A DNA stretch of 64,000 nt from contig CAYZIP010000003.1 of NCBI GenBank assembly GCA_964478695.1, positions 4,143 through 68,142 on the forward strand, read 5' to 3'. Origin of the DNA: an uncultured Candidatus Saccharibacteria bacterium (GTDB lineage Bacteria; Patescibacteriota; Saccharimonadia; JAGOAT01; CAYZIP01). Position 1 is the first letter of the stretch; every line of letters starts with the position of its first letter. A model generated the notes under the pieces. It did no database searches. It saw only the letters and a list, made by a program, of their open reading frames with translations, and had not been told where the DNA came from. A program made the position numbers and the translations under genes. Below are positions 5,521 through 57,062 of this stretch, in pieces.

Positions 5521-5952
5521 ATGATCACAATTAATCCTTATATAAATTTCAATGGAAATGCCGAAGAAGCTTTTATCTTTTATAAATCAGTATTTGGTGG
5601 AGAATTTACAAAAGTCATGAGGTTTAAAGACTTAGCAAGTGCAGATTCTCCAGTATCGGAAAAAGAGGCAGATAAAATCATGCATATAGCTCTACCTATA
5701 GGTGGGAATATGTTAATAGCTAATGATGTCCCCGAGGTGATGGGGAGAGTAAATGAAAATGAGAACAGGTCAAAAATTTCAGTTAGTATAGATAGTAAAG
5801 AAGAAGCAGATAGAATTTTTAATGCTCTTTCGGCAGGAGGAGTGGTAGAAATGCCAATCTCGGATAGTCCTTGGGGGCCTTATTTTGGAATGTTTAGGGA
5901 TAAGTATGGGATTGAGTGGACGATTGAATTTGATCAAGCTAAGCTATATTAA
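5521..5952 (+). CDS. VOC-family (glyoxalase/PhnB-like) protein.
   Basis: MITINPYINFNGNAEEAFIFYKSVFGG...PWGPYFGMFRDKYGIEWTIEF is typical of the PhnB/3-demethylubiquinone-9 methyltransferase-like domain. Confidence 0.7.
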   Translation: MITINPYINFNGNAEEAFIFYKSVFGGEFTKVMRFKDLASADSPVSEKEADKIMHIALPIGGNMLIANDVPEVMGRVNENENRSKISVSIDSKEEADRIFNALSAGGVVEMPISDSPWGPYFGMFRDKYGIEWTIEFDQAKLY

Positions 5953-5999
5953 TAATAAAAAATTATATTTTGATGTATCTTTAATACTTCTAGTAATGA

Positions 6000-6449
6000 A
6001 TGGTTTATTTTATGCCAAATAATGTCTTTATTAATTACATATACCGATCAATACATGAACGTATAGATATCAAAAATAATAAAATCCAATTAGGCCTACT
6101 GGTATTTTTTCTAGCCACAGCCCTATTAAAGATACTAACAGTACCTTTTTTATCACAACACATATCAAATTTTTATATTACAGGAATATTATTGCTACTT
6201 TCATTACATTGTAATTTAAAGAGATTAATTTCAAAATTTTATTTTTACACTGTGCTGTGGCTGTGGGTATTTATTAACCTATTAGCGGAATGGCTAGTAG
6301 GTGTAGATAGGCTTACGCTGCCAGGAATCAACTTCATCAATTTTAATACGCCAGATATGGTCGATGCTGTTTTTGGTATATTAGCAGTTATTATCTATGG
6401 GTTTATAACTTTAAAATATAGCACCAAGTCAGTATACACAAAGCCATGA
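6000..6449 (+). CDS. Hypothetical polytopic membrane protein.
   Basis: Hydrophobic segments are visible. Confidence 0.3.
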   Translation: MVYFMPNNVFINYIYRSIHERIDIKNNKIQLGLLVFFLATALLKILTVPFLSQHISNFYITGILLLLSLHCNLKRLISKFYFYTVLWLWVFINLLAEWLVGVDRLTLPGINFINFNTPDMVDAVFGILAVIIYGFITLKYSTKSVYTKP

Positions 6450-34832: not shown

Positions 34833-35179
34833 TGCTTTAACTGCTAGTCCTTTCTGTAATTTATTTGCTTATATTAAAGTCAATTTTTGAGATTAATTTT
34901 TTGAGATTATAAATTCAATCATAAAATTATATTATACTCTATAAAACTATCGAACTGTATTAAAAAAACTATCAAAACGCATTAAACTTAATAAGGATTA
35001 TCAAAGCAAAGGCCCACCAAAACTCTAGGATGGATGTAATATAAAATACTTATTTGGCTGCTTGGAGGCTATCATCTTTTTTTAAATGGGGTTTACTTTT
35101 AAACATGTTCATAGATAGCAAAAGAACTCCCACCTTTATCTGGCGAGAGCTCTTTGCGACGGGCGTTAAATAACATCAA

Positions 35180-35191
35180 TTTTGGTGCGGA
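35180..35191. repeat. A 12-nt TTTTGGTGCGGA copy of the tRNA-Leu(CAG) 3' end, a candidate attL of the 35.2-48.0 kb island.
   Basis: An identical 12-mer at 47963..47974 overlaps the tRNA-Leu 3' end. The flanks partly agree as well: caATTTTGGTGCGGA versus ccATTTTGGTGCGGA. Confidence 0.4.
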
Positions 35192-35618
35192 ACCCGCACA
35201 TAACTTTGAACTACTGAGTAGTATAGCTGATTGGCTATTTTCTAACAAAATTGCGGACGCCTTTCGGCTTCCTCAGCTTGATACAGAAAGCATCAGATTA
35301 CAGAGGTTACAGCCCAGCTACACCTACTAGCACTATATTTACTAGAGTAAGGTTTGAACCGTACCCAACAATCTAATTGTTAGGAAACAGTGGCAGTTGT
35401 TGGATTAGGACATATGCTTTAGGTCATAGCGATACTGCCCCCCCCTATGCTAATACCGCCCTAAACTGAGAACAATGTAAACGCACATACTACCTAAATA
35501 ATTACCGACATAAAAAAATGGTTTATTTTCCTTGTTGGTAACGGTAGATAATTACCGAGTTCAAGGTGCTTCCTCTCTTCAAATGGTTGCTAGTCCAATA
35601 CAAGGCTATAATTAAACT

Positions 35619-36299
35619 ATGATAAGAAACGACTTTAATCAGTACATCGAAAAGTATATAGAAGGCTACTTGTTTGCCGACCTTAAAACAATCCACGAAA
35701 AAGTAAGCAGAGACGGTAGCCACCAGCAGTCTCTTGGTAATTTAGCGTATCTTTTTACGATTGCTATGTGTTCGGCTATGGAGTTTTTGGGGTTATTGCT
35801 TCGAGATAAGGACGCAGTCAAGGACGGTAAGGTTGACGCCTCCAACGCCCTATCTCACTACATAAAATACTACCTAGAGCCCATTGACCCCAAGTATTCC
35901 ATACTGCGAGCTATAGGCTCTCAGTTAGTACGTAATGGCATATCACATACTTACGCCACAAAAGGAAACATAGCAATTACCCGTCAAGGCAAACGTGAGC
36001 AGACCCATTTTGTAAAATATGGTGCGGAAGGAGTGGTGGTGTTAAACCCTGATTATATTTACGAGGACTTCCTTAAGTCTTACGAGGTCGTTAAATCAAA
36101 ATTGGCAACAGATACAAATCTTCTTGCCCGAGTTGAGGAGCATTACAACTCAATCAAAGCTGTATACGTCAGTGAAGTAGCTAGCCTAAATACAGCGGAC
36201 ATTAACGGAATTGAGTGGAAAGATAAACTTAGTGGCATTGCAACGGACGACATTATCGACAGTATAGAAGTTAATGGCGACTTGGTCTTTGTGAGCTAA
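35619..36299 (+). CDS. Hypothetical protein, first gene of the island.
   Basis: A 226-aa ORF. The upstream leader carries two direct ATAATTACCGA repeats. Confidence 0.35.
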   Translation: MIRNDFNQYIEKYIEGYLFADLKTIHEKVSRDGSHQQSLGNLAYLFTIAMCSAMEFLGLLLRDKDAVKDGKVDASNALSHYIKYYLEPIDPKYSILRAIGSQLVRNGISHTYATKGNIAITRQGKREQTHFVKYGAEGVVVLNPDYIYEDFLKSYEVVKSKLATDTNLLARVEEHYNSIKAVYVSEVASLNTADINGIEWKDKLSGIATDDIIDSIEVNGDLVFVS

Positions 36300-36303
36300 A
36301 TAT

Positions 36304-37635
36304 CTAAATTGAAGTTTTTATAACTTCGCCGATGTACTTTTTGTTTAGCCAAAAGCATTTTTTAATTAGCTGAGTACCTTGCGGTGTTGGTAGGGTGTCC
36401 TTTGCGTTCTTGGCTTTAGGGCGAACGTGGGCAACATTGCTCTCAGTAGATTTTGGCAAGTCAGTAGCGTCTATGGCAACTCGTCGCTTAGTCTCCTCCC
36501 ATACACGGCGAGCCTCTTCGCGGTCGATAAACGGCATATTCCAATAGTTTACCTTAGCTAACCGTAGGTCGCCGTTCTCGTCCACTCGAAAAATAACTAG
36601 TAAGAACTTTTGCTCTATTTTGTTGAAAAAACTACTGTCCTCCCACTCCTCGTCTACTATATCGAGGTACTTAAAAGTAGGAAATGACATAGCCTCGGCT
36701 GGTAGCCAGTCTTTATTTACTCTGATAGTTTTTAGTTCAACACCAGCCTTATCAAGCTCTGGCACAGTTCTCTTTGTACCGCCTAGAATACGCATAGTCA
36801 GGCTTCGATAAAACCCTTTGTCGTTTTTACCGTGTTTATGGAAATCTAAGAGACTAGAAATCTCTTCAACAGTTTTACCGATGTAAGGCTTAAACTTGTT
36901 TTGGGTAGCGTCCTCGATTGTAACAGTAGCTGTTACGTCTAATACACCGACCTCTCCCGTATGACCCTCAATAATACGATTAACATAACTTGGCTTGAGC
37001 GAGAACGCCCTAGACTTTGCTGGTATATCAGAGTTCGGTTGTTGTCTTAGTTTTTCCTTCTCACCACCAGAACCTTTTCGACAAGCACCTAGATAGTAAG
37101 TGTCTCCCTCTGATAGTTCGTGAGCAAGTCCGTTCTCAATTTTCTTACGTATAGTTTCCCAGTCACGCTTTATAATCTCTAGGTCTTTCTCTGGAAACTC
37201 AAACAAAATCGGGTGCAATACAAATCGCCTATCAAAAATCGACAACTCTTTTTCGTACAGATAAAACAGCAACAGCATCAGACTACATTTTTCCATTAAC
37301 GACGAAGTATCCCACCTCTCGTTAACTAGGTTCATATAGTTAATCATTGTCAAAACAAGGCGTTCCTTTGCCTTGTAACTGCCGTCTGTTCTTTTTAGCA
37401 CTCCTGTAGTTTTTAGTTCTACTCCAGCGTCAGGAAAATCAGGAAGGTGCGTTGTATTGTCGGGCTGGTATCTGTAATAGTACCGTTCAACCATATTACC
37501 TAAGTCGCCCTTGTTGCTTATATTTTCGGCAACTCGGGACATATCCACTACTTCGGCGAGTGTTTTGCCAGAGAGACCACGAGCGTACTCTAATAGAGAC
37601 TGAGGAGAGCTTATATCATAAGTCGCTTGTGCCAT
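36304..37635 (-). CDS. Sau3AI/MutH-family type II restriction endonuclease with a two-domain architecture.
   Basis: LPDFPDAGVELKT at the N-terminus and a second degenerate copy, VPELDKAGVELKT, in the C-terminal half. This matches the Sau3AI duplication of the MutH fold. Confidence 0.65.
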   Translation of the reverse strand: MAQATYDISSPQSLLEYARGLSGKTLAEVVDMSRVAENISNKGDLGNMVERYYYRYQPDNTTHLPDFPDAGVELKTTGVLKRTDGSYKAKERLVLTMINYMNLVNERWDTSSLMEKCSLMLLLFYLYEKELSIFDRRFVLHPILFEFPEKDLEIIKRDWETIRKKIENGLAHELSEGDTYYLGACRKGSGGEKEKLRQQPNSDIPAKSRAFSLKPSYVNRIIEGHTGEVGVLDVTATVTIEDATQNKFKPYIGKTVEEISSLLDFHKHGKNDKGFYRSLTMRILGGTKRTVPELDKAGVELKTIRVNKDWLPAEAMSFPTFKYLDIVDEEWEDSSFFNKIEQKFLLVIFRVDENGDLRLAKVNYWNMPFIDREEARRVWEETKRRVAIDATDLPKSTESNVAHVRPKAKNAKDTLPTPQGTQLIKKCFWLNKKYIGEVIKTSI

Positions 37636-37709
37636 ATACTCAATTGTATCAAAAACATCGGTAAATGGGCTTGATCGAAAGCTATAAAATTGGTAAGATA
37701 GTTGTAAGT

Positions 37710-38963
37710 ATGGTAAAAAAAATCAAAGTCGTTGAGTTGTTTGCTGGTGTCGGGGGCTTTCGTATTGGTCTAGACAGAGCAAGTAACGACAAGTTTAAGT
37801 ATGAAACAGTTTGGGCTAATCAGTATGAGCCAGCAACCTCTCGTCAACACGCCTCAGAGGTGTATGTAGCACGTTTTGGTAAGAAGGGTTTTAGTGGTCG
37901 TGATATTGAAAAAGTTATAGAAGATGATTTCGATAGCATACCAGACCACGACTTACTCGTCGGTGGCTTTCCTTGTCAGGACTACTCAGTAGCAAGCACA
38001 CTTAAACACTCTCACGGTCTAATCGGTAAAAAGGGCGTATTATTCTGGTCAATCTACACTATTTTGCAACGCAAAGGCGATAAAGCACCTGACTACCTTT
38101 TTCTTGAAAATGTAGACCGCTTACTCAAGTCTCCAGCAAGTCAGCGTGGCAAGGACTTCGCTGTTATGCTCGCTTCGCTATCTGACCTTGGATATGCAAT
38201 TGAGTGGCGAGTTGTGAACTCTGCTGAGTATGGCTTTCCACAGAGGCGACGTAGAGTGTTCATTATTGGCTACAAGAAAGGCACTAAACTTTATGAGAAA
38301 GCTAAAAAAGCCGTTGCGAGCGAGTGGTTGACGAAAGACGGTGTACTAGCTGACGCCTTCCCCGTAGAGCCGACGCTATCAACTCACGAGGTTAAACTCG
38401 AAGGTACTTACGCTGACATTACGCAGAACTTCTCTGCTAATAAGCCAACTCTAAGCCCATTTGATAACTCAGGTTTAATGATAGACAGAGTGGTTATCAC
38501 GGGTAAGGTAAACCCAGTATACAGTGGCAAACATATGTCCCTAGGTGAAGTGCTTATTGACGAGAAAGATGTACCCGATGAGTTCTTTATACCCGAGGAC
38601 AAGCTACCTCAATGGACGTATTTAAAAGGTGCTAAAAAAGAGGAGCGTAAAACGGCAAGCGGACACGTTTATCATTATGCCGAAGGTGCTATGGTTTTTC
38701 CCGACGCATTAGATAAGCCGTCTAGAACGATTATCACAGGCGAGGGCGGTTCTGGAGCGTCTCGCTTTAAGCACGTAGTTAAAACACCGTCAGGTCGCTA
38801 TCGTAGGCTCGTACCACTTGAGTTAGAGCGACTTGATATGTTTCCCGACAATCACACCCAACTCGAAGGTGTTTCTGACGGCAAAAGGGCTTTCTTTATG
38901 GGTAATGCCCTTGTAGTTGGTGCTATCGAAAAGGTCGGGCACTCCCTCTCGAGAAAACGATAG
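37710..38963 (+). CDS. DNA cytosine-5 methyltransferase, a probable M.Sau3AI-like partner. The ORF opens at 37665.
   Basis: ELFAGVGG is motif I. GFPCQDYS is motif IV. ENV is motif VI. RRRVFIIG is motif VIII. It is divergent from the REase gene. Confidence 0.88.
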   Translation: MVKKIKVVELFAGVGGFRIGLDRASNDKFKYETVWANQYEPATSRQHASEVYVARFGKKGFSGRDIEKVIEDDFDSIPDHDLLVGGFPCQDYSVASTLKHSHGLIGKKGVLFWSIYTILQRKGDKAPDYLFLENVDRLLKSPASQRGKDFAVMLASLSDLGYAIEWRVVNSAEYGFPQRRRRVFIIGYKKGTKLYEKAKKAVASEWLTKDGVLADAFPVEPTLSTHEVKLEGTYADITQNFSANKPTLSPFDNSGLMIDRVVITGKVNPVYSGKHMSLGEVLIDEKDVPDEFFIPEDKLPQWTYLKGAKKEERKTASGHVYHYAEGAMVFPDALDKPSRTIITGEGGSGASRFKHVVKTPSGRYRRLVPLELERLDMFPDNHTQLEGVSDGKRAFFMGNALVVGAIEKVGHSLSRKR

Positions 38964-39026
38964 TATCCGAGCTCTTGTAACTGGGATATAATATGGTCAG
39001 ATACCGTTCTGGGCATTATTAAAATT

Positions 39027-41252
39027 ATGACAACACTAAAGAAAATCACTAAATTAAAAAATTTAGGCGTATACGCTGATTTTAGTTGGGGCTCTGATTT
39101 ACCTGAACTCAAGCAATACAATGTGGTGTACGGCTGGAACGGCACTGGTAAAACTACACTCTCAAAAATGCTGGGGGCTTTAAATACAGGTAGCCACACA
39201 GACTTCGCATCTCTCGAATACTCGGTGTTAGATAGTGATGGCAATACGTACACTCAAGGTTCTGAATTTACGACCCCTGTTAGAGTATTTAACTGTGAGT
39301 TCATAACTAAGAATGTAGACTTCGATGCACTAAGCTCAAAAACTATAACCGTAGTCTTAGGCGAAGAGAATAAAGAGGCACTTGAGGCTATTGAAGTTGA
39401 TGAAAAGAAATTAGCTGAGGTTATTTCGAACATCACGAAGAAAACAACCGCCAAGAGAACAAAAGAGAATACGCATAGCACGGCGTTTACCGATATAGCT
39501 CGAACTATAAGCCAAGGAACTCAAGGAGCGATAGTAAGAAACTACAATAAGACGAATGCTGAGGTTGCTTTTCGTACAATGAGTGGTAAAGAGTTACTCG
39601 ATGAGACTGAGTTGGCTAAAGTTTCTAAATCTGTGGCACAAGACACGATGCCAAAAATAACTGAGTTGTCCTTGGTAGGTGTAGATGAGATGCTAGCAGA
39701 TGCAATTACCGAAGCTAAGACACTTTTAGGTAAAACTGTCGAGGCAACGATTATAGCTAGGCTTAAAGATAACCAAGATATTTCAGAATGGGTTGAAGCT
39801 GGACTAGCATTACACGATAAGCACGCCAGTAAAAGCTGTGAATTTTGCGGACAAGCCTTAGGTACTGCTCGAATTACCGACCTAACCGCTCACTTCAATG
39901 AAGCCGATGCAAAACTAAAAGCTGATGTTGATACAGTCGTCGATACTTTGAGGCAAGTATATTCGAGCGTTGATAATCTGCAAGTATTAGACAAGGCGAA
40001 TGTTTATAAAGAATATCAAGATGTTTATACGACTAGCGGTGAGGATTTTTCTGAAAAGAAAAAGTTAGTACTTGATGCGATTAGAAAGTTTGAAGAGTTG
40101 GTTAATTCTAAAAAAGCTCACACGACCGAAGCCCTCCCTGTTGGTGAGGTACCTAGCCTTGAAGAGCTGAGTAAGTCTATAGCAACGCTCAATGGCATCA
40201 TTTCAGAGCACAACAATAAAACGGACGAGTTCGATGACCGTCGAAAAGCGGATAGCCAAAAGATTGAACGACACTATCTCAGTACCATATACGATTCAGT
40301 GCAGACACTCGAAGACAATATAAAAGTACTGAATGATGATTTAGAGCAGTTAAACGAAGACGAGAGCAACGGTAAGAAAGCACTTGAAACTAGAATTGCT
40401 GGTAATAGAGCAAAGATATCCTCTTCACATAAAGCCTGTGAAATGCTTTGTACTGATATTAAAAAGTTTTTAGGACACGGTGAAATTACCTTCAAAGTTA
40501 ATGCTGATGATACGGGTTACGACATTTTGCGAAATGGCAAACCAGCGAAAAGCCTTAGTGAAGGCGAGCGAACAGCTGTGGCATTCGTCTTCTTTATAAC
40601 GCACTTAAAGGAAGAAGGCTTCGACTCAAAATCTGGCATTATCGTCGTTGACGACCCCGTGTCCAGCCTTGACGCTAACTCGCAATTTCAAGCTTTTTCT
40701 TTTCTGAAGGAAGCCACCAAAGACGCTGGTCAATTGTTTCTTTTTACACATAATTTTGAATTTTTAAAACTCGTTTTATATTGGGTTGGTCGCAATAAAA
40801 CTAAACGTTCGTTGTTTATGGTCAATAATACTTTTTCAGTAGCTGATGGCTCCCGAACAGGTGCATCACTTATAAGACTTGACCCTTCTCTTGAGAAGTT
40901 TGAAAGTGAATATCATTATCTTTTTAATCTTGTCTATGGCTATGGTAACGGCGATGGCACTATAGCAAGTGCCTACACGATGCCAAATGTAGCCCGAAAA
41001 CTATTGGATAGTTTTCTAATGTTTAGGGTTCCGAAAAATGTCGAAACTTACGCACGCCTACAAGAACTTGATTTTGACGAAGAGAAGAAAACGGCAATAT
41101 ACAAGTTTACTAACGACCAATCTCATATAACTGGTGCTGGGTTTGACCCCTCGCTTGTCCCAGAAGCTCAAAAGTGCCTTAAATATCTTCTTGAGTTAAT
41201 GGAAGCGACCTTCCCCGAACACTATAAGTACCTAGTTGAAGCGGTATCATAA
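39027..41252 (+). CDS. RloC/PrrC-like Rad50-type ABC ATPase with a coiled coil and a CxxC zinc hook, plus a C-terminal domain of about 190 aa. It is a putative anticodon-nuclease or abortive-infection protein.
   Basis: Walker A GWNGTGKTT. A long K/E-rich coiled coil containing SCEFCGQ. ABC signature LSEGER. Walker B/D-loop IIVVDDPVSSLD. H-loop FLFTHN. Confidence 0.5.
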   Translation: MTTLKKITKLKNLGVYADFSWGSDLPELKQYNVVYGWNGTGKTTLSKMLGALNTGSHTDFASLEYSVLDSDGNTYTQGSEFTTPVRVFNCEFITKNVDFDALSSKTITVVLGEENKEALEAIEVDEKKLAEVISNITKKTTAKRTKENTHSTAFTDIARTISQGTQGAIVRNYNKTNAEVAFRTMSGKELLDETELAKVSKSVAQDTMPKITELSLVGVDEMLADAITEAKTLLGKTVEATIIARLKDNQDISEWVEAGLALHDKHASKSCEFCGQALGTARITDLTAHFNEADAKLKADVDTVVDTLRQVYSSVDNLQVLDKANVYKEYQDVYTTSGEDFSEKKKLVLDAIRKFEELVNSKKAHTTEALPVGEVPSLEELSKSIATLNGIISEHNNKTDEFDDRRKADSQKIERHYLSTIYDSVQTLEDNIKVLNDDLEQLNEDESNGKKALETRIAGNRAKISSSHKACEMLCTDIKKFLGHGEITFKVNADDTGYDILRNGKPAKSLSEGERTAVAFVFFITHLKEEGFDSKSGIIVVDDPVSSLDANSQFQAFSFLKEATKDAGQLFLFTHNFEFLKLVLYWVGRNKTKRSLFMVNNTFSVADGSRTGASLIRLDPSLEKFESEYHYLFNLVYGYGNGDGTIASAYTMPNVARKLLDSFLMFRVPKNVETYARLQELDFDEEKKTAIYKFTNDQSHITGAGFDPSLVPEAQKCLKYLLELMEATFPEHYKYLVEAVS

Positions 41253-41740
41253 TGACAGACAACCGAAAACACTGGCTCAACGAGGATGGCTTGGAAATGA
41301 TAGAGCCAGACCCGAGGTGGGACAACCCAGACTATGAGCCTGTCGAACAACCACGCCCCGATGACATTGTTTATAGACTAAACTACGATAGCGACCTACG
41401 TTATCTCAAGCTTAATACTTTTGTCGTCCAGACGTTCCAATTTGAGAGCCACGCTGACAGAGTATTCGGCGAGCTGTTCAAGCAAGAGGGAGACGTAAAA
41501 GCAATCACTGTTCACAGCCCCGCCAAAGCCGATGTAATCGTCAATAATATCGCTATGCCAATAAAACTACGTAACGCTATGTTCACGACTGGTAGTAAGG
41601 GCACTCGGTTGCAAGTGCACACCGTTATCACTAGAGAGCGAGCCAAAAAGTTTGGTGTTAGCGATAAAGAGGTACGAACATATATCGACAAATGCCGAGA
41701 TACACACTACAAGCTACGAGATACCAATAAACGTAAATAA
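41252..41740 (+). CDS. Hypothetical protein, translationally coupled (ATGA) to the RloC-like ATPase.
   Basis: A 162-aa ORF with no motif I recognise. Confidence 0.35.
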   Translation: MTDNRKHWLNEDGLEMIEPDPRWDNPDYEPVEQPRPDDIVYRLNYDSDLRYLKLNTFVVQTFQFESHADRVFGELFKQEGDVKAITVHSPAKADVIVNNIAMPIKLRNAMFTTGSKGTRLQVHTVITRERAKKFGVSDKEVRTYIDKCRDTHYKLRDTNKRK

Positions 41741-41965
41741 ACCACCCCGTTTCTGCGACAGCCTCGCAGTGTTTTGACACGATGGGCGTATGGAAACGCT
41801 AACCGCAGAAAAACTGGAAAGCCCTGCCGACGTACTGGTAGAGTTTTTGGACGAGTTAGCAAAGATTGAAGCAACACCTGAAAAGATTGAGCGAAATAGT
41901 ACGACGATGACCGCTCCTGACGGAACTGTTATTACATACTAAGCATCGACTGCGGTAAAATAAGG

Positions 41966-43780
41966 TTGATGGAGAATGAAAACCAAGAGCTGGATGTAAC
42001 AAAATTACGCTACGTCCTATACGCCAGAAAATCTACCGAAGACGAAGGTAGTCAAGTTAACTCTATCGACGACCAGATACGTATTTGCCTAGAGTATGCC
42101 AACAATCACGGACTACACATCGTAAAGGTTATCAAAGAAGAAAAATCTGCCAAGAAGTACGGCAATCGCCCCCAGTTCACGGAGATGCTTAAGGGTTTCC
42201 CGATACAATACGACGGTTTGCTAGCATATCACCCTGACCGAGTAGCTCGTAATATGCGTGATGCTGGCATAATTATCGACCTACTAAACCCCGAGAAAGC
42301 TCAGATTAAAAGTATGGCGTTTCCGACTGTGCAGTATGCAAATGACAGTAGCGGAAGGCTTACTCTAGCCGTGCTCTTTTCACTTGCAACGCAATTTTCT
42401 GAACATCTAAGCGAGGTTGTGAGGCGTGGCGTAAAAACTAAGCTCAATAAGGGTATATCGTCGGGTGCTCCAAAATGGGGTTACGAACGTAATGAGATTA
42501 GCGACTTTTATGAGCCTGACGCTAACTTCCAATACGTACAGCGAGCGTGGATGATGCGAGCCGAGGGTGAACGTATTGCTGATATTGTAAAGTACCTCAA
42601 TAGCCACGACGTGAAGCGTATCACCAAGATTACGAGAACCAATAAGAAGCAACGCACTATCAGACCAAGCCAAACGAGTATCACTAAAATGTTTGGCGAT
42701 AGTTTCTTCTACGGATTGCTTATACAAAAGGGTCAGGAGGTAGATTTACGCAAAGTTACTACCAGTTTCACGCCAATGATTGACGAGGAAACTTACGACC
42801 GAGTACAAGCAGTTTCCTACAGACGCTCTAGGCTCAAGCCGAAGTCTATAAAAGAGGGCATCTTCTATCCTTTTAGAAGTATGGTGTTTTGCGGTGTTTG
42901 CCACAGTGATACGCCAATGCGAGTGGGTAAAAACAAGAGCGGTGGTAGTGGTCACGTGCTGTCGTACCGTTGCGATAATCCAAACTGTAAGAGAACTGTT
43001 AAGAGTGTTCGAGCTAAGTACATACTTGACGGGCTCTATGATGCCCTGAAGACCCTCCAGCTCACCGACAAGGAGTACGAAACCTATAGCAAGAGACTAG
43101 ACGAGCTTACAGACGATAAAATTGACGAGCTACAGTCCGAACGACGAAGCCTCAATGGTGTTAAAAATGTAAAAACCAAAGAACGAGATGACCTCTCTCG
43201 TAAGTTCCGTGATATGACCGATAAGCACCCTTCGTATGCCGTCACCGAAACTGACATCACAGTACTTCACAATGAAATTATCGACATCGAGACGAGAGTA
43301 GCCGAAATTACCTCAAAACTAAGGAACACAGATACTATCAAGCTCACGAAGGAAGAGTTTTTGAACTTGGCAAAAACAGCGTACGACAAGATGAGAGCTG
43401 GAACTCCACTTGAAAAGGACATACTTGCACGAAAAATGCTTTTGAACCTATCCCTAAATGACGAAAGAGCTCCTTCCTTTATCTGGAAAGAGCCCTTTGC
43501 CACGGTGTTTGCTAACACCCAATCTTCTTTTGGTGCAATTTTACACTTTTGCGCGAACCGAATTCCAGCGCAGCTGCGAGTGAGTGAGCCGCGCCGCCTG
43601 TGCGGGCAAGCCCGCACGCGCCCCACCAGCCGCCCCCTTACCTTATTTTTTGAGATTTCCCCCGCCGAATTTCTTTTTTTATCTGAAAAGGGGTTGGCTG
43701 GTGGTTCGCCTACTGCAAGCAGTAGAGGCGGCACGGCTTTAGTCGGCATAGCCGACGCGCTACGCGCATCACTCCTGTAA
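41966..43780 (+). CDS. Large serine recombinase 1. The true C-terminus is probably near 43530 and the ORF reads on into the repeat.
   Basis: YVLYARKSTEDEGSQ contains the catalytic Ser. LAYHPDRVARN. A recombinase domain, a CxxC...C zinc ribbon and a coiled coil. The last 80 aa translate repeat DNA. Confidence 0.8.
   Translation: MMENENQELDVTKLRYVLYARKSTEDEGSQVNSIDDQIRICLEYANNHGLHIVKVIKEEKSAKKYGNRPQFTEMLKGFPIQYDGLLAYHPDRVARNMRDAGIIIDLLNPEKAQIKSMAFPTVQYANDSSGRLTLAVLFSLATQFSEHLSEVVRRGVKTKLNKGISSGAPKWGYERNEISDFYEPDANFQYVQRAWMMRAEGERIADIVKYLNSHDVKRITKITRTNKKQRTIRPSQTSITKMFGDSFFYGLLIQKGQEVDLRKVTTSFTPMIDEETYDRVQAVSYRRSRLKPKSIKEGIFYPFRSMVFCGVCHSDTPMRVGKNKSGGSGHVLSYRCDNPNCKRTVKSVRAKYILDGLYDALKTLQLTDKEYETYSKRLDELTDDKIDELQSERRSLNGVKNVKTKERDDLSRKFRDMTDKHPSYAVTETDITVLHNEIIDIETRVAEITSKLRNTDTIKLTKEEFLNLAKTAYDKMRAGTPLEKDILARKMLLNLSLNDERAPSFIWKEPFATVFANTQSSFGAILHFCANRIPAQLRVSEPRRLCGQARTRPTSRPLTLFFEISPAEFLFLSEKGLAGGSPTASSRGGTALVGIADALRASLL
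43745..43767. repeat. GC-rich palindromic motif GGCATAGCCGACGCGCTACGCGC, containing GTCGGC-ATA-GCCGAC. This is copy 1 of 3; the others are at 45579..45600 and 46228..46249, the last being a half site.
   Basis: Seen three times at module boundaries next to the recombinase genes. Confidence 0.6.
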
Positions 43781-43916: not shown

Positions 43917-44654
43917 ATGGATATCCTCTATCTTGCGACATTTCTTGTCGCGCTTATATCAAGCATTTTAAGCGGCATCGCTGGCGGTGGTGGCGGATTC
44001 GTCATGTCGCCGTACTGGCTAATTTCGGGCATGACACCTGCGCAGGGTGCAGCAACTGGTGCATTTATGGCAACAGGCGTGTCTATTAGCTCGGTTGCAG
44101 CGTTTCGCAAGTCCGACCACTTCCCCAAAAACAGAAAGCTGCTGTATATTTTGTCGGTGACGACACTGATTGGCTCAATTCTCGGAGCTATCATTGTGCC
44201 GAAAATTGATATTCAAGCATTCAAATATATGCTGGCAATTATTACCATTGCGGCTCTGCCGCTTTTGTTTATCAAACCAAATATCAAACATCGCTTGAGT
44301 AAGCACGGCAACATTGGCTTGCTGTTCGCGATAGCACTCCTTATCGTCGGCTCAATCATCACCAGTAGTGCGTTTTCAATCTTATTCGCACTCACACTCA
44401 TGGCATTTTTCAGTATGTCAGTACTACAGATGACTGCTCTGCGCCGATTGGTTGGCGTGGTGCAGTCGGTAGTTTTGTTTGTTGCATTTGCGGTGCAAGG
44501 CTATCTTGTCTGGCAACATGCTCTCGCTGGGTTTATTGGCGGTAGTATCGGGAGTTATATCGGCACGAAGTATGCTATTAAGAAAGGTGAAACTTTCGCC
44601 AAGTATGCACTGGCGATTATGTCACTTATCGGTGCGGTTGCGCTGTTAGTGTGA
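43917..44654 (+). CDS. TauE/SafE (TSUP) family anion exporter-like membrane protein.
   Basis: ILSGIAGGGGGFVMSPYWL and repeated 4-TM halves. The gene is GC-rich. Confidence 0.7.
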   Translation: MDILYLATFLVALISSILSGIAGGGGGFVMSPYWLISGMTPAQGAATGAFMATGVSISSVAAFRKSDHFPKNRKLLYILSVTTLIGSILGAIIVPKIDIQAFKYMLAIITIAALPLLFIKPNIKHRLSKHGNIGLLFAIALLIVGSIITSSAFSILFALTLMAFFSMSVLQMTALRRLVGVVQSVVLFVAFAVQGYLVWQHALAGFIGGSIGSYIGTKYAIKKGETFAKYALAIMSLIGAVALLV

Positions 44655-44666
44655 GATAATAAGATT

Positions 44667-45245
44667 ATGAAAAATATACAATCTTCCGAACTAAACGAAA
44701 GTTACGCACCTATGCAGGAAGTTGAGCCAACGCCAATTCACACCATAGAACCTATGCAACTCGATGATACAGACGGGGTTCATACTCTCTTGCGAGCAGG
44801 ACACCTGGCAACATATGTCAATGAAGAGCTGGGTGTTACTGCTGAAAAGGTAGACCAGCGTTTCTCTGGCTCAACACCCGAAGAGCGTCGAGAGAGAAAT
44901 AAAAAACGTATTGCCGACCCTAATAATCAAGCTTGGGTTGCAAAAGATGACAAGCAGCAAGTTATCGGATTTGTTGCTCCTCGCATCGAGGAGGACGGCA
45001 CACATCGTCTAGGCGCATTATATGTAACCAAAGAATGGCAAGGTAAAGGCATAGCCCATGAACTCATGGCTAAGGCGATTGATTGGCTTGATGGCGAACA
45101 CTATGATATTAAGCTCGGTGTCGTTACGTACAATGAACGCGCAAAAGCGTTTTACCGTAAGTATGGTTTCGAGGAAGTCCCAGATTCTGAAACACTTTTT
45201 GACGATCTCATACCAGAAGTATTTATGGTGCGAAAAGCGCAGTAG
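44667..45245 (+). CDS. GNAT-family N-acetyltransferase.
   Basis: QGKGIAHELMAKAIDW...AFYRKYGFEEV is an acetyl-CoA binding motif. Confidence 0.7.
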   Translation: MKNIQSSELNESYAPMQEVEPTPIHTIEPMQLDDTDGVHTLLRAGHLATYVNEELGVTAEKVDQRFSGSTPEERRERNKKRIADPNNQAWVAKDDKQQVIGFVAPRIEEDGTHRLGALYVTKEWQGKGIAHELMAKAIDWLDGEHYDIKLGVVTYNERAKAFYRKYGFEEVPDSETLFDDLIPEVFMVRKAQ

Positions 45246-45434
45246 GTCGCTAAAGCGACAGCGCACCCACCAGCCAACCCCTTTTCAGATAAAAAAAGAA
45301 ATTCGGCGGGGGAAATCTCAAAAAATAAGGTAAGGGGGCGGCTGGTGGGGCGCGTGCGGGCTTGCCCGCACAGGCGGCGCGGCTCACTCACTCGCAGCTG
45401 CGCTGGAATTCGGTTCGCGCAAAAGTGTAAAATT

Positions 45435-45539
45435 GCACCAAAATGGCAGAATTACGGAAATTGCCGCCCATTCGGGCGGTTTTTTCTCTGGCGGCGCGCA
45501 GCGCCAACCAGCTGTTTTTCTGGGGGGAATGAGATTTGG
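45435..45539. repeat. IR-B. It is an inverted copy of the 105 nt downstream of tRNA-Leu(CAG), including the last 6 nt of the tRNA and its terminator. Its partner is at 47867..47971, with 2 mismatches.
   Basis: I compared the reverse complement by eye. Confidence 0.8.
45463..45487 (+). terminator. Rho-independent terminator GCCGCCC-ATTC-GGGCGGT followed by TTTTTT. It lies inside IR-B, and a second copy at about 47920-47945 on the minus strand terminates tRNA-Leu.
   Basis: A GC stem followed by a T tract. Confidence 0.6.
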
Positions 45540-46213: not shown

Positions 46214-46377
46214 TGTTTTTATTATAACATAGCCGACACGCTCCACGCCGTGGTAAAATAGAAGTGGACACAATCTATTAGTAAAACGGCGATATTTTTG
46301 GCTTTAATAGCCGTCCCGTACAATGCAGTTTTACTGGATTGTGTCCAGCGGGGCGGCTATTTAAGTGGAGGGCAACT

Positions 46378-48012
46378 ATGATGGAACTACTGGTAAACAT
46401 AGAGCCGGTGTATCTCATCTATGTACGAAAAAGCACCGATGTCGAGGACAAGCAAATATTATCTGTCGCAGCGCAGATAATAGAGCTAAAAGAGTTTGCC
46501 AAGCGCATGGGCTTGCGTGTTGCGGGTGTCATCATAGAAAAACAAACCGCGAAAAAGCCAGGACGCCCGAAGTTTAACAAAATGCTGGAGCGTATAGAAA
46601 ACGGCGAGGCAAACGGCATTTTGGCATGGCTGCCCGACAGATTGTCGCGCAACAGCATAGATAGCGGGCGCGTTATTTATATGCTTGATGAAAATGTTAT
46701 CGCCGACCTGAAGTTCCCGCATTTTTGGTTTGAGAATACACCGCAAGGCAAATATATGCTGGCTAATGAGTTTAACAGTTCTAAACAGTATGTAGATAAT
46801 TTGTCGGTAAACACCAAGCGAGGGCTGCGCCAAAAGGTGCGCGAGGGGCATTGCCCGCGCCTTGCGCCTGTCGGGTATATCAATGATGTGCGGACGAAAA
46901 CGATATGGGTAGACAAACGGCTTGCGCCGATTGTTCGCCAAGCGTTTGAGCTATACGCAACTGACACAAAGACGCTGGACGATATTGCCGCCTTTTTGTA
47001 CGCCAATGGTATAAAAACGCGCGGGCGGCGCAGGGTTAAGGACGAGCCAAAATCTGCGGGCGGGCGGCAATGGCATGCGTCGCGCGTGAAACGAATGTTG
47101 CAAGATGTGTTTTATTACGGGCATTTTCGCTATGTGGACACGGTGCATGAGGGCAAGCATACGCCCATCATTGACAAACCACTCTTTGACAAGGTGCAGC
47201 GAGCACTTGCAGGGCGTGGACGCGCGCAAAAGCGCGCTACTGCCCCGCAGCCGCTTAATTTGCTGGTGCGGTGTGGGAATTGTGATTGTTTTGTAACTGG
47301 TGCGCACAAGATAAAGCGGCAGAAAAACGGCAATGTGCATGAATATACCTATTATCGGTGTACTCACAAGAAAAAGGCGGCGATGTGCCGCGAAAAGGAG
47401 GTACGCGAATATGTACTGGCTGGACAACTCGTCCCGATTTTGCAATCTTTTGCCTTGCCAAAAGATTGGCGCGACTATATGGCGTCAAGGCTGGAGCAAG
47501 ACAGAGCCGAGCTAGAGAATGAAAGCAAGGCGATGATTGACACGCTGCGTGGTGAATTGGACGCCATAAGCGCGAAACTCAAACGACTTTTTGATATGTA
47601 TTTGGACAGTGATATTGACCGCGAGGACTACAAAGACCGCCAAGCCGAGCTGATGAGCGAGAAAAAGTCGCTTGAGGGCAAAATCGAGCGCGTTCTGGCG
47701 AACGCGGGGTACTGGATTGAACCTATGCAGCAATGGTTAGAAACTGCCGTTTCTATCTGTACGATAGACGAAAAATCGGAGCATAGCGAGATTGCGCGGG
47801 CTTTTCGCCAAATTGAAGGATTGAACCTAAAAATGAAAAACGAAAAAGTCGTCGCGGAGCGCGACGCCAAATCTCATTCCCCCCAGAATAACAGCTGGCT
47901 GGCGCTGCGCGCCGCCAGAGAAAAAACCGCCCGAATGGGCGGCAATTTCCGTAATTCTGCCATTTTGGTGCGGATGAAAGGACTTGAACCTTCACAGGGT
48001 TACCCCCACTAG
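46378..48012 (+). CDS. Large serine recombinase 2. The ORF opens at 46339. The C-terminal roughly 50 aa translate IR-B' and tRNA DNA.
   Basis: LIYVRKSTDVEDKQ, AWLPDRLSRN, a zinc ribbon and a coiled coil. GGAGGG lies upstream of ATG 46378. Confidence 0.8.
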   Translation: MMELLVNIEPVYLIYVRKSTDVEDKQILSVAAQIIELKEFAKRMGLRVAGVIIEKQTAKKPGRPKFNKMLERIENGEANGILAWLPDRLSRNSIDSGRVIYMLDENVIADLKFPHFWFENTPQGKYMLANEFNSSKQYVDNLSVNTKRGLRQKVREGHCPRLAPVGYINDVRTKTIWVDKRLAPIVRQAFELYATDTKTLDDIAAFLYANGIKTRGRRRVKDEPKSAGGRQWHASRVKRMLQDVFYYGHFRYVDTVHEGKHTPIIDKPLFDKVQRALAGRGRAQKRATAPQPLNLLVRCGNCDCFVTGAHKIKRQKNGNVHEYTYYRCTHKKKAAMCREKEVREYVLAGQLVPILQSFALPKDWRDYMASRLEQDRAELENESKAMIDTLRGELDAISAKLKRLFDMYLDSDIDREDYKDRQAELMSEKKSLEGKIERVLANAGYWIEPMQQWLETAVSICTIDEKSEHSEIARAFRQIEGLNLKMKNEKVVAERDAKSHSPQNNSWLALRAAREKTARMGGNFRNSAILVRMKGLEPSQGYPH

Positions 48013-48051
48013 CACCTGAAGCTAGCGTGTCTACCATTCCACCACATCCGC
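47966..48051 (-). tRNA. tRNA-Leu (anticodon CAG), with a long variable arm.
   Basis: GCGGATGTGGTGGAATGGTAGACACGCTAGCTTCAGGTGCTAGTGGGGGTAACCCTGTGAAGGTTCAAGTCCTTTCATCCGCACCA. Confidence 0.85.
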
Positions 48052-54071: not shown

Positions 54072-54161
54072 GCGGATGTGGTGGAATGGTAGACACGCTA
54101 GCTTGAGGTGCTAGTGCTTTATTTTAAGAGCGTGAAGGTTCAACTCCTTTCATCCGCACCA
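54072..54161 (+). tRNA. tRNA-Leu (anticodon GAG).
   Basis: GCGGATGTGGTGGAATGGTAGACACGCTAGCTTGAGGTGCTAG...GAAGGTTCAACTCCTTTCATCCGCACCA. The 5' 33 nt are identical to the CAG isoacceptor. Confidence 0.85.
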
Positions 54162-54183
54162 AATCCATAGGGAGAATATATAG

Positions 54184-54915
54184 GTGGATAAAAAACAAGT
54201 TTTAGGTAATATAAACCAAATATTTAAAGCTATTTTTGGGGTAGAGGGCAATTTTGCTGATCCTGATATATTTAAAAAGGTTTATGCCGCTGATTTATCA
54301 GCTCTACCTCATCAAAGCATATGTGATGACAATAAAGAGCCCACCACTGTTCGAGCCAGCGATAGTGGATTCAAGGCTTTATCCAGTAGTGCTATAGATG
54401 AGCGTTTTATGAAAGATCAATTCATAGAACCAACGCGCAAAATCAGTGACCTGGATGATTTATTTACTGCTTTTGATAAGATTTCTACCCGCAGGGGAGA
54501 TGCGAATATTAATAGTAATTATGTGACCGATTCAACCAATGTCCATAATAGTAGTTTTGTGTTTGGCTCACAGGGGGTTAGCCAGAGTCAGCATGTATAT
54601 TATAGCTATGGGATAGAAGAGAGCGAATTTATAGCTGCTAGCAGTGATGTTTTTAATAGTCAGTATTGTATCAGAGCTACGGGGGTTAATAATTGCCGGC
54701 TCAGTTTTGCTATAGATTTCAGCTCCAAAATAGATAATAGCTTTTTTATTCATAATGGACTTAATTTAACAGATTGTATGTTTTCACATCATATCGTTGA
54801 GAGACAGTATTGTATAGCAAATATGCAGTATGAGCCTGATGAATATATTAAGATCAAACAATTAGTATTTAACAATTGGCCAGCTATTGTTAAAAAATAT
54901 GTATTAAAGATATAG
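54184..54915 (+). CDS. Hypothetical protein with a GTG start.
   Basis: A 243-aa ORF with no motif I recognise. Confidence 0.35.
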   Translation: MDKKQVLGNINQIFKAIFGVEGNFADPDIFKKVYAADLSALPHQSICDDNKEPTTVRASDSGFKALSSSAIDERFMKDQFIEPTRKISDLDDLFTAFDKISTRRGDANINSNYVTDSTNVHNSSFVFGSQGVSQSQHVYYSYGIEESEFIAASSDVFNSQYCIRATGVNNCRLSFAIDFSSKIDNSFFIHNGLNLTDCMFSHHIVERQYCIANMQYEPDEYIKIKQLVFNNWPAIVKKYVLKI

Positions 54916-54968
54916 GTTTTTGTCCGAATTATTTTTATAAATACAAATATTGAAGTACGAATATTTTT

Positions 54969-55055
54969 TGGTGGGCAAGGAGGGACTCGAACCCTCAAGC
55001 CATAAAGTGGCATTGGATTTTAAGTCCAACGTGTATACCATTCCACCACTTGCCC
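54969..55055 (-). tRNA. tRNA-Leu (anticodon UAA).
   Basis: The reverse complement is GGGCAAGTGGTGGAATGGTATACACGTTGGACTTAAAATCCAATG...GAGGGTTCGAGTCCCTCCTTGCCCACCA. Confidence 0.85.
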
Positions 55056-55068
55056 TTATATATTATTG

Positions 55069-55142
55069 TGGAGGTCTGTAGCGGGATCGAACCGCTGTAG
55101 AAGGTTTTGCAGACCTTTGCCTAACCACTCGGCCAACAGACC
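55069..55142 (-). tRNA. tRNA-Cys (anticodon GCA).
   Basis: The reverse complement is GGTCTGTTGGCCGAGTGGTTAGGCAAAGGTCTGCAAAACCTTCTACAGCGGTTCGATCCCGCTACAGACCTCCA. Confidence 0.85.
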
Positions 55143-55305
55143 ATCTATTCTTGATAACAGACTTTTATAAATAAAGTGCTCTGCTTAAAGCATTTTTCAA
55201 AATACTTATCTACTAATATGTATTATACATTCTCATTCTAACCAGGTCTAGTAAATATAATCAGGTTTTTGTTAAAATACTTTTATCCCTTAATGTTATC
55301 CTTAT

Positions 55306-55381
55306 GGCGACTTAGCTCAGTTGGTAGAGCAGAGGCCTGAAGAGCCTTGTGTCGTTGGTTCGAATCCATCAGTCGCCACCA
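55306..55381 (+). tRNA. tRNA-Phe (anticodon GAA).
   Basis: GGCGACTTAGCTCAGTTGGTAGAGCAGAGGCCTGAAGAGCCTTGTGTCGTTGGTTCGAATCCATCAGTCGCCACCA. Confidence 0.85.
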
Positions 55382-57062
55382 TTTTATACATATGCGGGTG
55401 TAGCTCAGTTGATAGAGCGCTTCCTTGCCAAGGAAGAGGCCCCGAGTTTGAGTCTCGGTACCCGCACCATTCGCAACGTAGCGCCTGTAAAAGGGCGCTT
55501 TTTATCTGTTGTGGGCAGGTTTTAACCTTACCCAACTCGTTTCTAAAGCGTTTTGCGTTATTTTTAACTGGAATTAACCATTCATCTGGGGTAATAGTAA
55601 GTTTTCCGTCTAATAATACTGGGTTTTGACCGATTGCTAGCAGTATCTCTTTTTTGTCTGCAAACTCGCCATTTACGAACTTATTAGTTGCTCCTGTGAG
55701 TTTTAGGAACGTATCACTCATGAAGTCGTACCAGCTTTCAACTTTCTTTGCAGTATCAGCTTGCTTCTTATGAAGTTCTTTTAATTGACCTTTAAGCTTA
55801 CTGTTTTTAGAAACAAATGTTTCCTCATCTACAAGCCCACGAGTGGACATATCAAGTAAGCGGTCTAACTGGTTCTCAATATCTTGAATAGCTTTACTCT
55901 GCATTTCAATGGCATTATCACGCTCTGGCTTTTCTTCCTGTAGCATTTCGTTTAAAGCTTCCATGCTCCACTGATACAGTTGTGGCGATAGTTCGTATTC
56001 GTTTAGTAGCTTTTCGCATTGCTCATAAAGGTCATCTTCTTTTATCATCTTACGTTGACTACAGTTAATAGTGCTGCTCCTGCGAGTACAATGATAGTAA
56101 ACGTGCGTATTACTACCACCGTCTTTAAGCTTTCGCTCTTGGCTCTGTGCTGTAACCATACAGCCACACTCACCACAGCGTATAAGCCCTCTTAGAGCGA
56201 ACTGCCTACGTGTAGCGAACTTCTTAGCTGCCTTTGAGCCTAGAAGCGTCTGAATGCGGTCAAACTCCTCTTGAGTCATTAAAGGTGGGTAGTTTGCAGG
56301 ATACATTTTTTCAGGGTCATGTGGGTCTGGAACCCAGCCAGCGTACCTGACGTTATTAAACACTCTGTATAAAGAAGCTCTACCGAGTGGACCACCACCT
56401 CTCTTATTGTGCTTTAGCGTCCGATAGCCTTTTTCTTCATTTAACCACTTGAGTATAAGAGGAACACTATAGTTACCAGTCAACATCATATCTACGGCTT
56501 CTCTTAGTAGTGGAAAGCGCAACTCGTCTTTATATACTGTTTTCTTGATTCGGTCATTTAAGTAACCCTCTGGCGCACAGCCTGTTAATCCGCCATTCTT
56601 GCGCTTCTGCTCATTGCCACGCTTTACATCTTTGCTTAACTTGGCTGAAAAGTACTGTGATTGGCTCATAGTGAGCTGTAACATCATTATGCCTTCTGGG
56701 GAGTTATCAAAGGTGTAGTTAGCAAATGCTAGGTCTTTAATGATTCCACGTCTTATGCGATACGTAAGGGCTGCTGCGTCCTGTTCATTCCTGGACAGTC
56801 TGTCAGGGTGCCATGCCACTATTCCGTCAATCTCGCCTTTATCAAGCATTTCTATTATCTGCTTAAATACTGGTCGCTTGTCAGGCTCAAAAGCACTTTT
56901 GCTCTCGTCTAAGAACCTGACGATGTTTAATTTGGGGAAGCGTTCTTTGATTTTATTCTTTTGGGCTTCCTTTGATAGAACTTGTCGTTCTTCGTCTTCT
57001 GTAGATTTGCGTACATACGCAACGTATTTTAGGTTATTTAGTTTATTGTTTTCGTAATTCAT
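55317..57062 (-). CDS. Large serine recombinase 3. The C-terminal 60 aa or so are read-through across the terminator and across tRNA-Gly and tRNA-Phe on the opposite strand.
   Basis: YVAYVRKSTEDEERQ, VAWHPDRLSRN, a CGECGC zinc ribbon and a coiled coil. The tail ...DSNSGPLPWQGSALSTELHP... is a typical anti-tRNA translation. Confidence 0.75.
   Translation of the reverse strand: MNYENNKLNNLKYVAYVRKSTEDEERQVLSKEAQKNKIKERFPKLNIVRFLDESKSAFEPDKRPVFKQIIEMLDKGEIDGIVAWHPDRLSRNEQDAAALTYRIRRGIIKDLAFANYTFDNSPEGIMMLQLTMSQSQYFSAKLSKDVKRGNEQKRKNGGLTGCAPEGYLNDRIKKTVYKDELRFPLLREAVDMMLTGNYSVPLILKWLNEEKGYRTLKHNKRGGGPLGRASLYRVFNNVRYAGWVPDPHDPEKMYPANYPPLMTQEEFDRIQTLLGSKAAKKFATRRQFALRGLIRCGECGCMVTAQSQERKLKDGGSNTHVYYHCTRRSSTINCSQRKMIKEDDLYEQCEKLLNEYELSPQLYQWSMEALNEMLQEEKPERDNAIEMQSKAIQDIENQLDRLLDMSTRGLVDEETFVSKNSKLKGQLKELHKKQADTAKKVESWYDFMSDTFLKLTGATNKFVNGEFADKKEILLAIGQNPVLLDGKLTITPDEWLIPVKNNAKRFRNELGKVKTCPQQIKSALLQALRCEWCGYRDSNSGPLPWQGSALSTELHPHMYKMVATDGFEPTTQGSSGLCSTN
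55394..55469 (+). tRNA. tRNA-Gly (anticodon GCC).
   Basis: GCGGGTGTAGCTCAGTTGATAGAGCGCTTCCTTGCCAAGGAAGAGGCCCCGAGTTTGAGTCTCGGTACCCGCACCA. Confidence 0.9.
55479..55506 (+). terminator. Rho-independent terminator AGCGCCC-TGTAAAAG-GGGCGCT followed by TTTTAT, after the tRNA-Phe/tRNA-Gly pair.
   Basis: A GC stem followed by a T tract. Confidence 0.55.

Follow-up and report, generated by a model that had tools for sequence, protein, structure and literature searches.

A predicted RloC-family anticodon nuclease as cargo of a tRNA-targeting serine-recombinase element of Saccharibacteria

Does a large ATPase gene that overlaps a small gene, next to a restriction-modification (R-M) system, form a two-gene defence module? 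The question is raised by a stretch of 64,000 nucleotides (nt) from an uncultured Candidatus Saccharibacteria bacterium (contig CAYZIP010000003.1), here called the window, in which an open reading frame (ORF) of 741 amino acids (aa) is followed by one of 162 aa, designated p162. An initial annotation of the window placed both ORFs correctly and proposed that together they could form an uncharacterised module; stop and start share one base (TAATG). The reading reached here, and held with high confidence, is that the large ORF encodes RloC, a single-protein, self-regulated anticodon nuclease, and that p162 belongs to the recombination module of an integrative element and is no component of RloC.

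Family and domains of the 741-aa protein

By its sequence the large ORF is a member of the already described RloC family (PF13166/COG4694, PDC-S06). The Pfam family AAA_13 (PF13166) matches the protein with an E-value of 3e-133 over profile positions 3-712 of 713, at a score of 446 bits where the cut-off is 36. Since the profile covers the whole protein, the C-terminal domain is a part of the AAA_13 family and no odd addition. The PADLOC model PDC-S06, a candidate single-gene system, matches from end to end (E 6e-237). At least 350 relatives were found at E < 1e-10 in a search of 5.8 billion proteins, and many of them, including relatives with 80% and 72% identity, carry the JGI name 'wobble nucleotide-excising tRNase' (COG4694/RloC). 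RloC homologues are widespread across phyla and full-length homologues are present on 243 plasmids, labelled merely 'AAA family ATPase'. A sequence search of PDB with the whole ATPase matched only the EcfA ATP-binding cassette (ABC) protein. The description of the module as uncharacterised could not be upheld, because the RloC family is known and works as a single protein.

RloC is defined by ABC motifs, a coiled-coil insert with a CX2C zinc hook, a C-terminal triad and a length of 658-897 aa (PMC2610378), a size range that includes the window protein. The motifs listed in the initial annotation (Walker A, CxxC hook, signature, D-loop and H-loop) are all present (Table 1), with IIVVDDP at residues 538-544 and FTHN at residues 573-576. 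In an alignment of 32 homologues with 43-80% identity, on which all statements of residue conservation are based, K42, C271, C274, S511, E514, D542, D543 and H575 are invariant. The two ABC lobes are separated by an insert of about 390 aa, poor in proline and glycine and rich in charged residues. The long coiled coil assumed for this region was recovered in part; a crude test of heptad periodicity was positive for residues 281-490 but not for residues 101-265. About 360 residues of the RloC of G. kaustophilus (GkaRloC) were taken by optical character recognition (OCR) from the supplement of PMC2610378, and this fragment aligns with residues 240-334 of the window RloC (E 3e-10), both cysteines of its CAFC hook being matched.

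The C-terminal domain of the window protein models as a HEPN fold, the fold assigned to the C-terminal domain of RloC and PrrC (PMC3710099). The RloC triad is Arg-X3-Glu-X36-52-His, with Ser often preceding the His (PMC2610378), and the corresponding pattern in the window is R657-x3-D661-x38-S699-H700. The search for a conserved Arg, Glu and His in the homologues found R657, S699 and H700 to be invariant and position 661 always acidic (Asp in 24 of the 32, Glu in 8). An extra domain of about 190 aa had been expected at the position of the anticodon nuclease (ACNase) domain; a HEPN-like domain does lie there, but only about 165 aa follow the H-loop. A PDB search with a profile of the C-terminal domain gave nothing meaningful.

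The likeness to the RloC proteins of G. kaustophilus and A. baylyi concerns size, ABC motifs, a helical insert whose CxxC hook aligns to GkaRloC, a C-terminal HEPN domain with Arg-x3-acidic-x38-Ser-His, and a stand-alone gene, often on mobile DNA and sometimes R-M linked. The window protein differs from them in having Asp for the triad Glu, in its Saccharibacteria host of the candidate phyla radiation (CPR), and in being cargo of a tRNA-targeting serine-recombinase element beside a type II (Sau3AI-like) R-M system. PrrC, known from the prr/EcoprrI type Ic R-M locus of E. coli, also joins an ABC ATPase N-domain to a C-terminal HEPN ACNase and is likewise a second-line defence tied to restriction. 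However, PrrC has about 400 aa and lacks the coiled-coil/zinc-hook insert, and it is found only within a type I R-M system, which keeps it silent, whereas the neighbour in the window is of type II. The PADLOC model for PrrC, run alongside AAA_13, matches the signature/Walker B region only (residues 485-598, E 4e-8) and leaves the C-domain uncovered. PrrC proper was rejected on this partial coverage and on the 390-aa insert, so that the original assignment to RloC/PrrC-like Rad50-type ATPases is narrowed to RloC by AAA_13, PDC-S06, the hook and the C-terminal triad.

The p162 gene and the serine recombinase

For p162, 33 loci, given below by their L numbers, were gathered by exact-protein look-ups and collection scans and mapped by tblastn, ORF calling and Pfam. 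The relatives of p162 form 45 clusters with 53-93% identity, and a deep profile search of 1.84 billion cluster representatives gave a family of only 27 clusters. All named sources are metagenome-assembled genomes of Saccharibacteria or Saccharimonadales. No match to p162 was obtained in Pfam, PADLOC, NCBIfam, PHROGs or PDB, and the longer distant relatives contain no Pfam domain; fn3 matches on P0177 in the deep profile search look spurious and were discarded. The fold of p162 is weakly predicted as an OmpR-like winged helix.

The co-occurrence of genes around p162 bears on the question of a partnership with RloC. A large serine recombinase of about 523-527 aa, on the same strand and 138-1082 nt after p162, is present in all 30 loci that extend at least 700 nt downstream. 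Of about 24 non-redundant p162 loci, four (the window, L009, L010 and L011) have RloC, which is found without p162 in six others (L012/L013 and L034-L037). L012/L013 carry a 72%-identical RloC in the order hsdM-rloC-hsdS-hsdR, the classical 'restriction-linked ORF' arrangement, and the RloC copies with 42-59% identity outside the element family are alone or near DUF2130, methyltransferase (MTase) or Fic genes, again without p162. The consistent pairing of ATPase and small protein implied by the initial annotation is therefore not observed. Because a recombinase always follows p162 while the gene upstream of p162 varies, p162 is to be grouped with the recombinase, and RloC with the cargo that can be exchanged.

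The variation of the upstream gene is considerable. A 118-aa protein and a reverse transcriptase (RT) precede p162 in the L001 group, in L015 and in L023/L027, and in L023/L027 the RT overlaps p162 as RloC does in the window. Genes for an alpha/beta-hydrolase or HAD/NUDIX proteins lie upstream on the opposite strand in L005, L014, L021 and L022, a BanI R-M system is found in L008, and a type II restriction endonuclease (REase), a Dam MTase and an Old-like ATPase in L018. L019 has an RT of the UG21 type, one of the defence-associated reverse transcriptases (DRT), further upstream. The element in L001 carries a Sau3AI/Dcm pair 82-86% identical to the pair in the window, with the RT cassette exactly in the RloC position. 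The Sau3AI-like type II neighbour reported for RloC is real (Table 1), but in view of this arrangement a functional tie between the two is not supported. PrrC-like silencing by the adjacent R-M system was likewise considered and dismissed, as in L001 the same system adjoins the RT cassette, and there are close relatives of RloC with no R-M genes beside them.

The recombinases that follow p162 belong to two very different subfamilies, A (present in the window) and B, and p162 copies with 90-93% identity occur with both. In 11 loci the recombinase gene runs at its 3' end into a gene for tRNA-Leu or tRNA-Gly, subtype A ending inside the 3' end of tRNA-Leu and subtype B inside tRNA-Gly(gcc). A distant p162 relative of 268 aa (30% identity) lies in an element ending with a serine recombinase that overlaps tRNA-Asn. 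The small acidic ORF p50 (Table 1) has an analogue of about 57 aa in the subtype-B loci (L014, about 5900-6080) that shares its 'LLDELA' motif, and p50 has no family in Pfam, PADLOC, NCBIfam or PHROGs. Together, p162, the acidic protein of about 50 aa and the large serine recombinase constitute a conserved right-end module of integrative elements that seem to be restricted to Saccharibacteria.

Large serine recombinases with accessory or recombination directionality factor (RDF) genes are known from elements and prophages such as SPbeta (SprA/SprB) and TP901-1 (Int/Orf7). The elements described here resemble them in a recombinase of about 525 aa at the end, small ORFs directly upstream, site-specific integration and the presence of cargo. 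They differ in that neither p162 nor p50 is detectably similar to any known RDF, that the target is a tRNA 3' end overlapped by the recombinase coding sequence, and that the p162 family seems to be limited to Saccharibacteria. In the literature on PDC-S06 and on Saccharibacteria serine-recombinase islands no description of the element or of p162 was found. The best guess, a weak one, is that p162 binds DNA and serves the element as an accessory or a regulator, and p50 is a candidate directionality factor. The wider proposal, that p162 and the acidic ORF of about 50 aa are an undescribed accessory factor (directional or regulatory) of large serine recombinases and define Saccharibacteria-specific, tRNA-targeting 'defence cassettes' with an exchangeable slot, is tentative and given slightly less than even chances.

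Directly after the stop codon of p162 (41741-41770 in the window) lies an intergenic motif, CGTTTCTGCGACAG / ATTTACGACA, that is kept in both subtypes. It is also present in L001, L005, L011, L014-L016, L019, L025, L027, L030 and L031, and persists in elements whose p162 is just 54-56% identical. The motif may be an operator or promoter element. A scan for promoters and terminators gave nothing significantly above shuffled sequences.

Three other explanations were weighed. That the 741-aa protein is a DNA-repair ATPase of the SMC/RecN/Rad50 type without a nuclease role is almost certainly wrong. Weak SMC_N and RecF matches would agree with it, and the split ABC head and CxxC zinc hook of the window protein resemble those of Rad50, SbcC and T4 gp46, whose antiparallel arm with the hook at its apex would correspond to the helical insert; however, the SMC_N and RecF matches are under the curated cut-offs while AAA_13/RloC fits the whole length. 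The arms of Rad50, SbcC and T4 gp46 are also much longer, and neither these proteins nor RecN have a HEPN domain with the invariant Arg and Ser-His. Rad50 and its relatives work with an Mre11/SbcD nuclease, and no such gene was found among the RloC neighbours in the ORF list or with Pfam; the gene is instead carried by a mobile island, with an R-M system next to it. The two-gene defence module of the initial annotation, in which p162 would be a translationally coupled antitoxin, silencer or sensor of RloC, is very unlikely and is largely refuted by the co-occurrence counts. It is favoured by the gene junctions, which overlap by one base (TAATG) in the window and L009, abut in L010 and overlap in L011. 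However, about 20 of the 24 non-redundant p162 loci have no RloC, the upstream gene in several is a non-defence gene on the opposite strand, and RloC occurs without p162 in the six loci named above, one of them a type I R-M operon with a 72%-identical copy. The same overlap is seen between RT and p162 in L023/L027, which argues for gene packing rather than specific pairing, and published RloC has an internal switch that makes an external silencer unnecessary (PMC3458546).

It is also improbable, if somewhat less so, that p162 lies outside the recombination module and is a general adaptor or regulator of the upstream cargo, for example a transcription factor. This would account for its constant position at the junction of cargo and recombinase, its overlap with same-strand cargo (RloC, RT), the in-frame Dam MTase ORF in L018 and the weak winged-helix prediction, and the p162 copies of 90-93% identity that occur with two recombinase subfamilies speak against a recombinase-specific factor. 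On the other side, the cargo is often divergent or unrelated to defence (L005, L014, L016, L021, L022), the spacing of p162 to p50 and the recombinase is conserved, as is the downstream intergenic motif, and the distant 268-aa homologue once more shares its element with a recombinase whose gene runs into that of a tRNA. Some observations weigh against the favoured reading of a self-contained RloC beside an independent recombination module. The p162 gene directly follows RloC, overlapping or abutting it, in all four RloC-bearing elements of this family, and a terminator-like hairpin lies just 3' of p162, so that a local functional link may exist in these elements. The tRNA target, the trigger and the anti-phage effect are carried over from distant relatives, and the comparison with a validated RloC is based on the OCR fragment, aligned over 96 residues. 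The catalytic acid is Asp in the window and in most homologues, against Glu in GkaRloC and PrrC, and clear left-end attachment (att) repeats were seen in just three loci, the window, L018 and L031.

The integrative element and the tRNA-Leu array

RloC and the Sau3AI-type R-M system are cargo of a Saccharibacteria integrative element of about 8.35 kb, at about 35180-43536, with the gene content p226, Sau3AI REase, Dcm, RloC, p162, p50 and the large serine recombinase LSR1. Read in reverse complement, the 9-nt core TTTTGGTGC corresponds to the 3' end of tRNA-Leu(cag), GCACCA, followed by AAA. The 64 kb contain four copies of it and no more, three at 35180, at 43528 (where the recombinase gene ends) and at 47963 (in the tRNA), and an inverted one at 45435. 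The recombinase 3' end recurs in degenerate form in the roughly 90 nt that lead up to 35188. At the core, other sequence takes the place of about the last five codons of LSR1 and of its stop, so that the ORF runs on as far as 43780; intact homologues end in ...SSFGADERT and a stop codon over DNA that is identical to the tRNA 3' end. The G+C content is 0.41-0.52 between 35 and 48 kb, compared with about 0.35 outside, with the rise at about 35 kb. Searches of Pfam, PADLOC, NCBIfam and PHROGs found no family for p226, and the related loci lack a homologue of it.

Table 1. Features of the RloC protein, the integrative element and the adjacent tRNA-Leu locus in the window
Feature	Position	Strand	Remarks
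Left boundary	35095..35190	+	Degenerate (~76%) copy of recombinase 3' end, ending in core TTTTGGTGC (35180-35188)
p226, 226-aa cargo protein	35619..36299	+	Left end of element
Sau3AI-family type II restriction endonuclease, cargo	36304..37635	-	NCBIfam NF040973 equivalog E 2e-127; Pfam MutH
C5 cytosine DNA methyltransferase, cargo	37665..38963	+	Paired with the endonuclease; Pfam DNA_methylase E 5e-56; PADLOC MTase_II E 2e-160
RloC-family protein	39027..41252	+	741 aa; Rad50-like ABC ATPase, zinc hook, predicted C-terminal HEPN anticodon-nuclease domain
Walker A / P-loop GWNGTGKT	39132..39155	+	Residues 36-43; G36, G41, K42 invariant
Zinc hook CEFC	39837..39848	+	Residues 271-274; C271, C274 invariant in 32 homologues
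C-terminal ABC lobe	40554..40754	+	LSEGER 510-515, Walker B/D-loop IIVVDDPVSSLD 538-549, H-loop FLFTHN 571-576
Predicted HEPN-fold nuclease domain	40884..41249	+	About residues 620-741; R657, D661, S699, H700
p162, conserved 162-aa protein	41252..41740	+	First gene of the element's recombination module
p50, small acidic ORF, 50 aa	41790..41942	+	By tblastn between p162 and recombinase in all subtype-A loci
LSR1, large serine recombinase (subtype A)	41966..43536	+	Pfam Resolvase, Recombinase, Zn_ribbon_recom
Right-end core TTTTGGTGC, attR-like	43528..43536	+	Homology to sibling elements stops here
LSR2, second large serine recombinase	46339..48012	+	557 aa, ~28% identical to LSR1; 3' end overlaps tRNA-Leu(cag)
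tRNA-Leu(cag)	47966..48051	-	3' end supplies core; anchors tandem island array

A tandem array at tRNA-Leu comprises this element as one of its units, and also LSR2. Because no p162 gene lies upstream of LSR2, this recombinase belongs to a different element family with the same kind of target. A perfect inverted repeat of 177 nt (43528-43704 / 45267-45443) starts exactly at the att-like core and takes the place of the last LSR1 codons. It flanks a 1.56-kb segment with genes for a 245-aa membrane protein (43917-44654) and a 192-aa protein (44667-45245), and could result from recombinase-mediated inversion or be an assembly artefact. A second inverted repeat, of 105 nt and 98% identity (45435-45539 / 47867-47971), contains an inverted copy of the LSR2 3' end that lies 2.3 kb upstream of LSR2 and abuts the 177-nt repeat, a sign that elements at tRNA-Leu(cag) may have been rearranged or inserted in tandem. 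A third serine-recombinase-like ORF (55719-57062, minus strand), 31% identical to LSR2, converges on a tRNA cluster at 54072-55469 (Leu, Leu, Cys, Phe and Gly-gcc), and may mark a further integration hot spot.

In the sibling elements several features of the cargo were noted. The RT cassette, composed of the 118-aa protein, which is without family, and a 419-aa RT (PADLOC RT / UG17-like), takes the RloC slot between the Dcm and p162 genes (L001 6283-7937, L015 41-1704, L027 7421-9105). In L018 (9125-10477) the ORF of a Dam-type (D12) MTase runs in frame into the p162 homologue with no stop codon, giving a single frame of 450 aa, either by gene fusion or because a stop was lost. Many of the elements, but not the window, share a 75-aa ORF (p75, 'MKDRKTYKILT...') without family, which sits on the cargo's left side, is read from the opposite strand and often comes with an ORF of 158 aa (L001 3081-3308, L010 3313-3540, L011 7501-7728, L014 3386-3613, L019 8697-8924, L038 3963-4190). 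In L005 both the recombinase 3' end (9779-9909, 12858-12990) and p75 (12317-12541, 14180-14404) are duplicated within 5 kb, which suggests decayed tandem elements at the same site.

Proposed action of RloC and meaning of the element

The 741-aa RloC most probably acts as an anticodon nuclease under its own control, with DNA breaks as the signal that it senses. Its proposed action is modelled on work with the RloC proteins of Geobacillus (GkaRloC) and Acinetobacter (AbaRloC) (PMC2610378, PMC3458546, PMC3874168). The protein would remain latent until the Rad50-like region meets DNA ends or double-strand breaks, upon which DNA-dependent ATP hydrolysis and the zinc hook would switch on the HEPN domain. 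This domain would then make two cuts in the anticodon loop and excise the wobble nucleotide of certain tRNAs. Translation would stop, and phage tRNA-repair enzymes could not easily undo the damage, so that RloC may act as a back-up phage defence of the abortive-infection type.

The RloC of the window is in itself an ordinary further member of its family, the new points being the CPR host and the Asp in the triad. What the analysis chiefly adds is a family of tRNA-targeting serine-recombinase elements of Saccharibacteria with a swappable cargo slot. In the wider proposal given above, the slot between a fixed left part and p162 would exchange RloC, DRT-type RTs, R-M systems, Old-like ATPases and others. 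As small recombinase-associated proteins, p162 and p50 are new candidates for directionality factors, which bears on genome engineering with serine integrases, and the module of p162, p50 and recombinase could serve to mark defence or accessory genes in CPR genomes. For the organisms the finding means that ultra-small, host-dependent Saccharibacteria gain classical abortive-infection nucleases, as RloC is predicted to be, and R-M systems by way of compact integrative elements.

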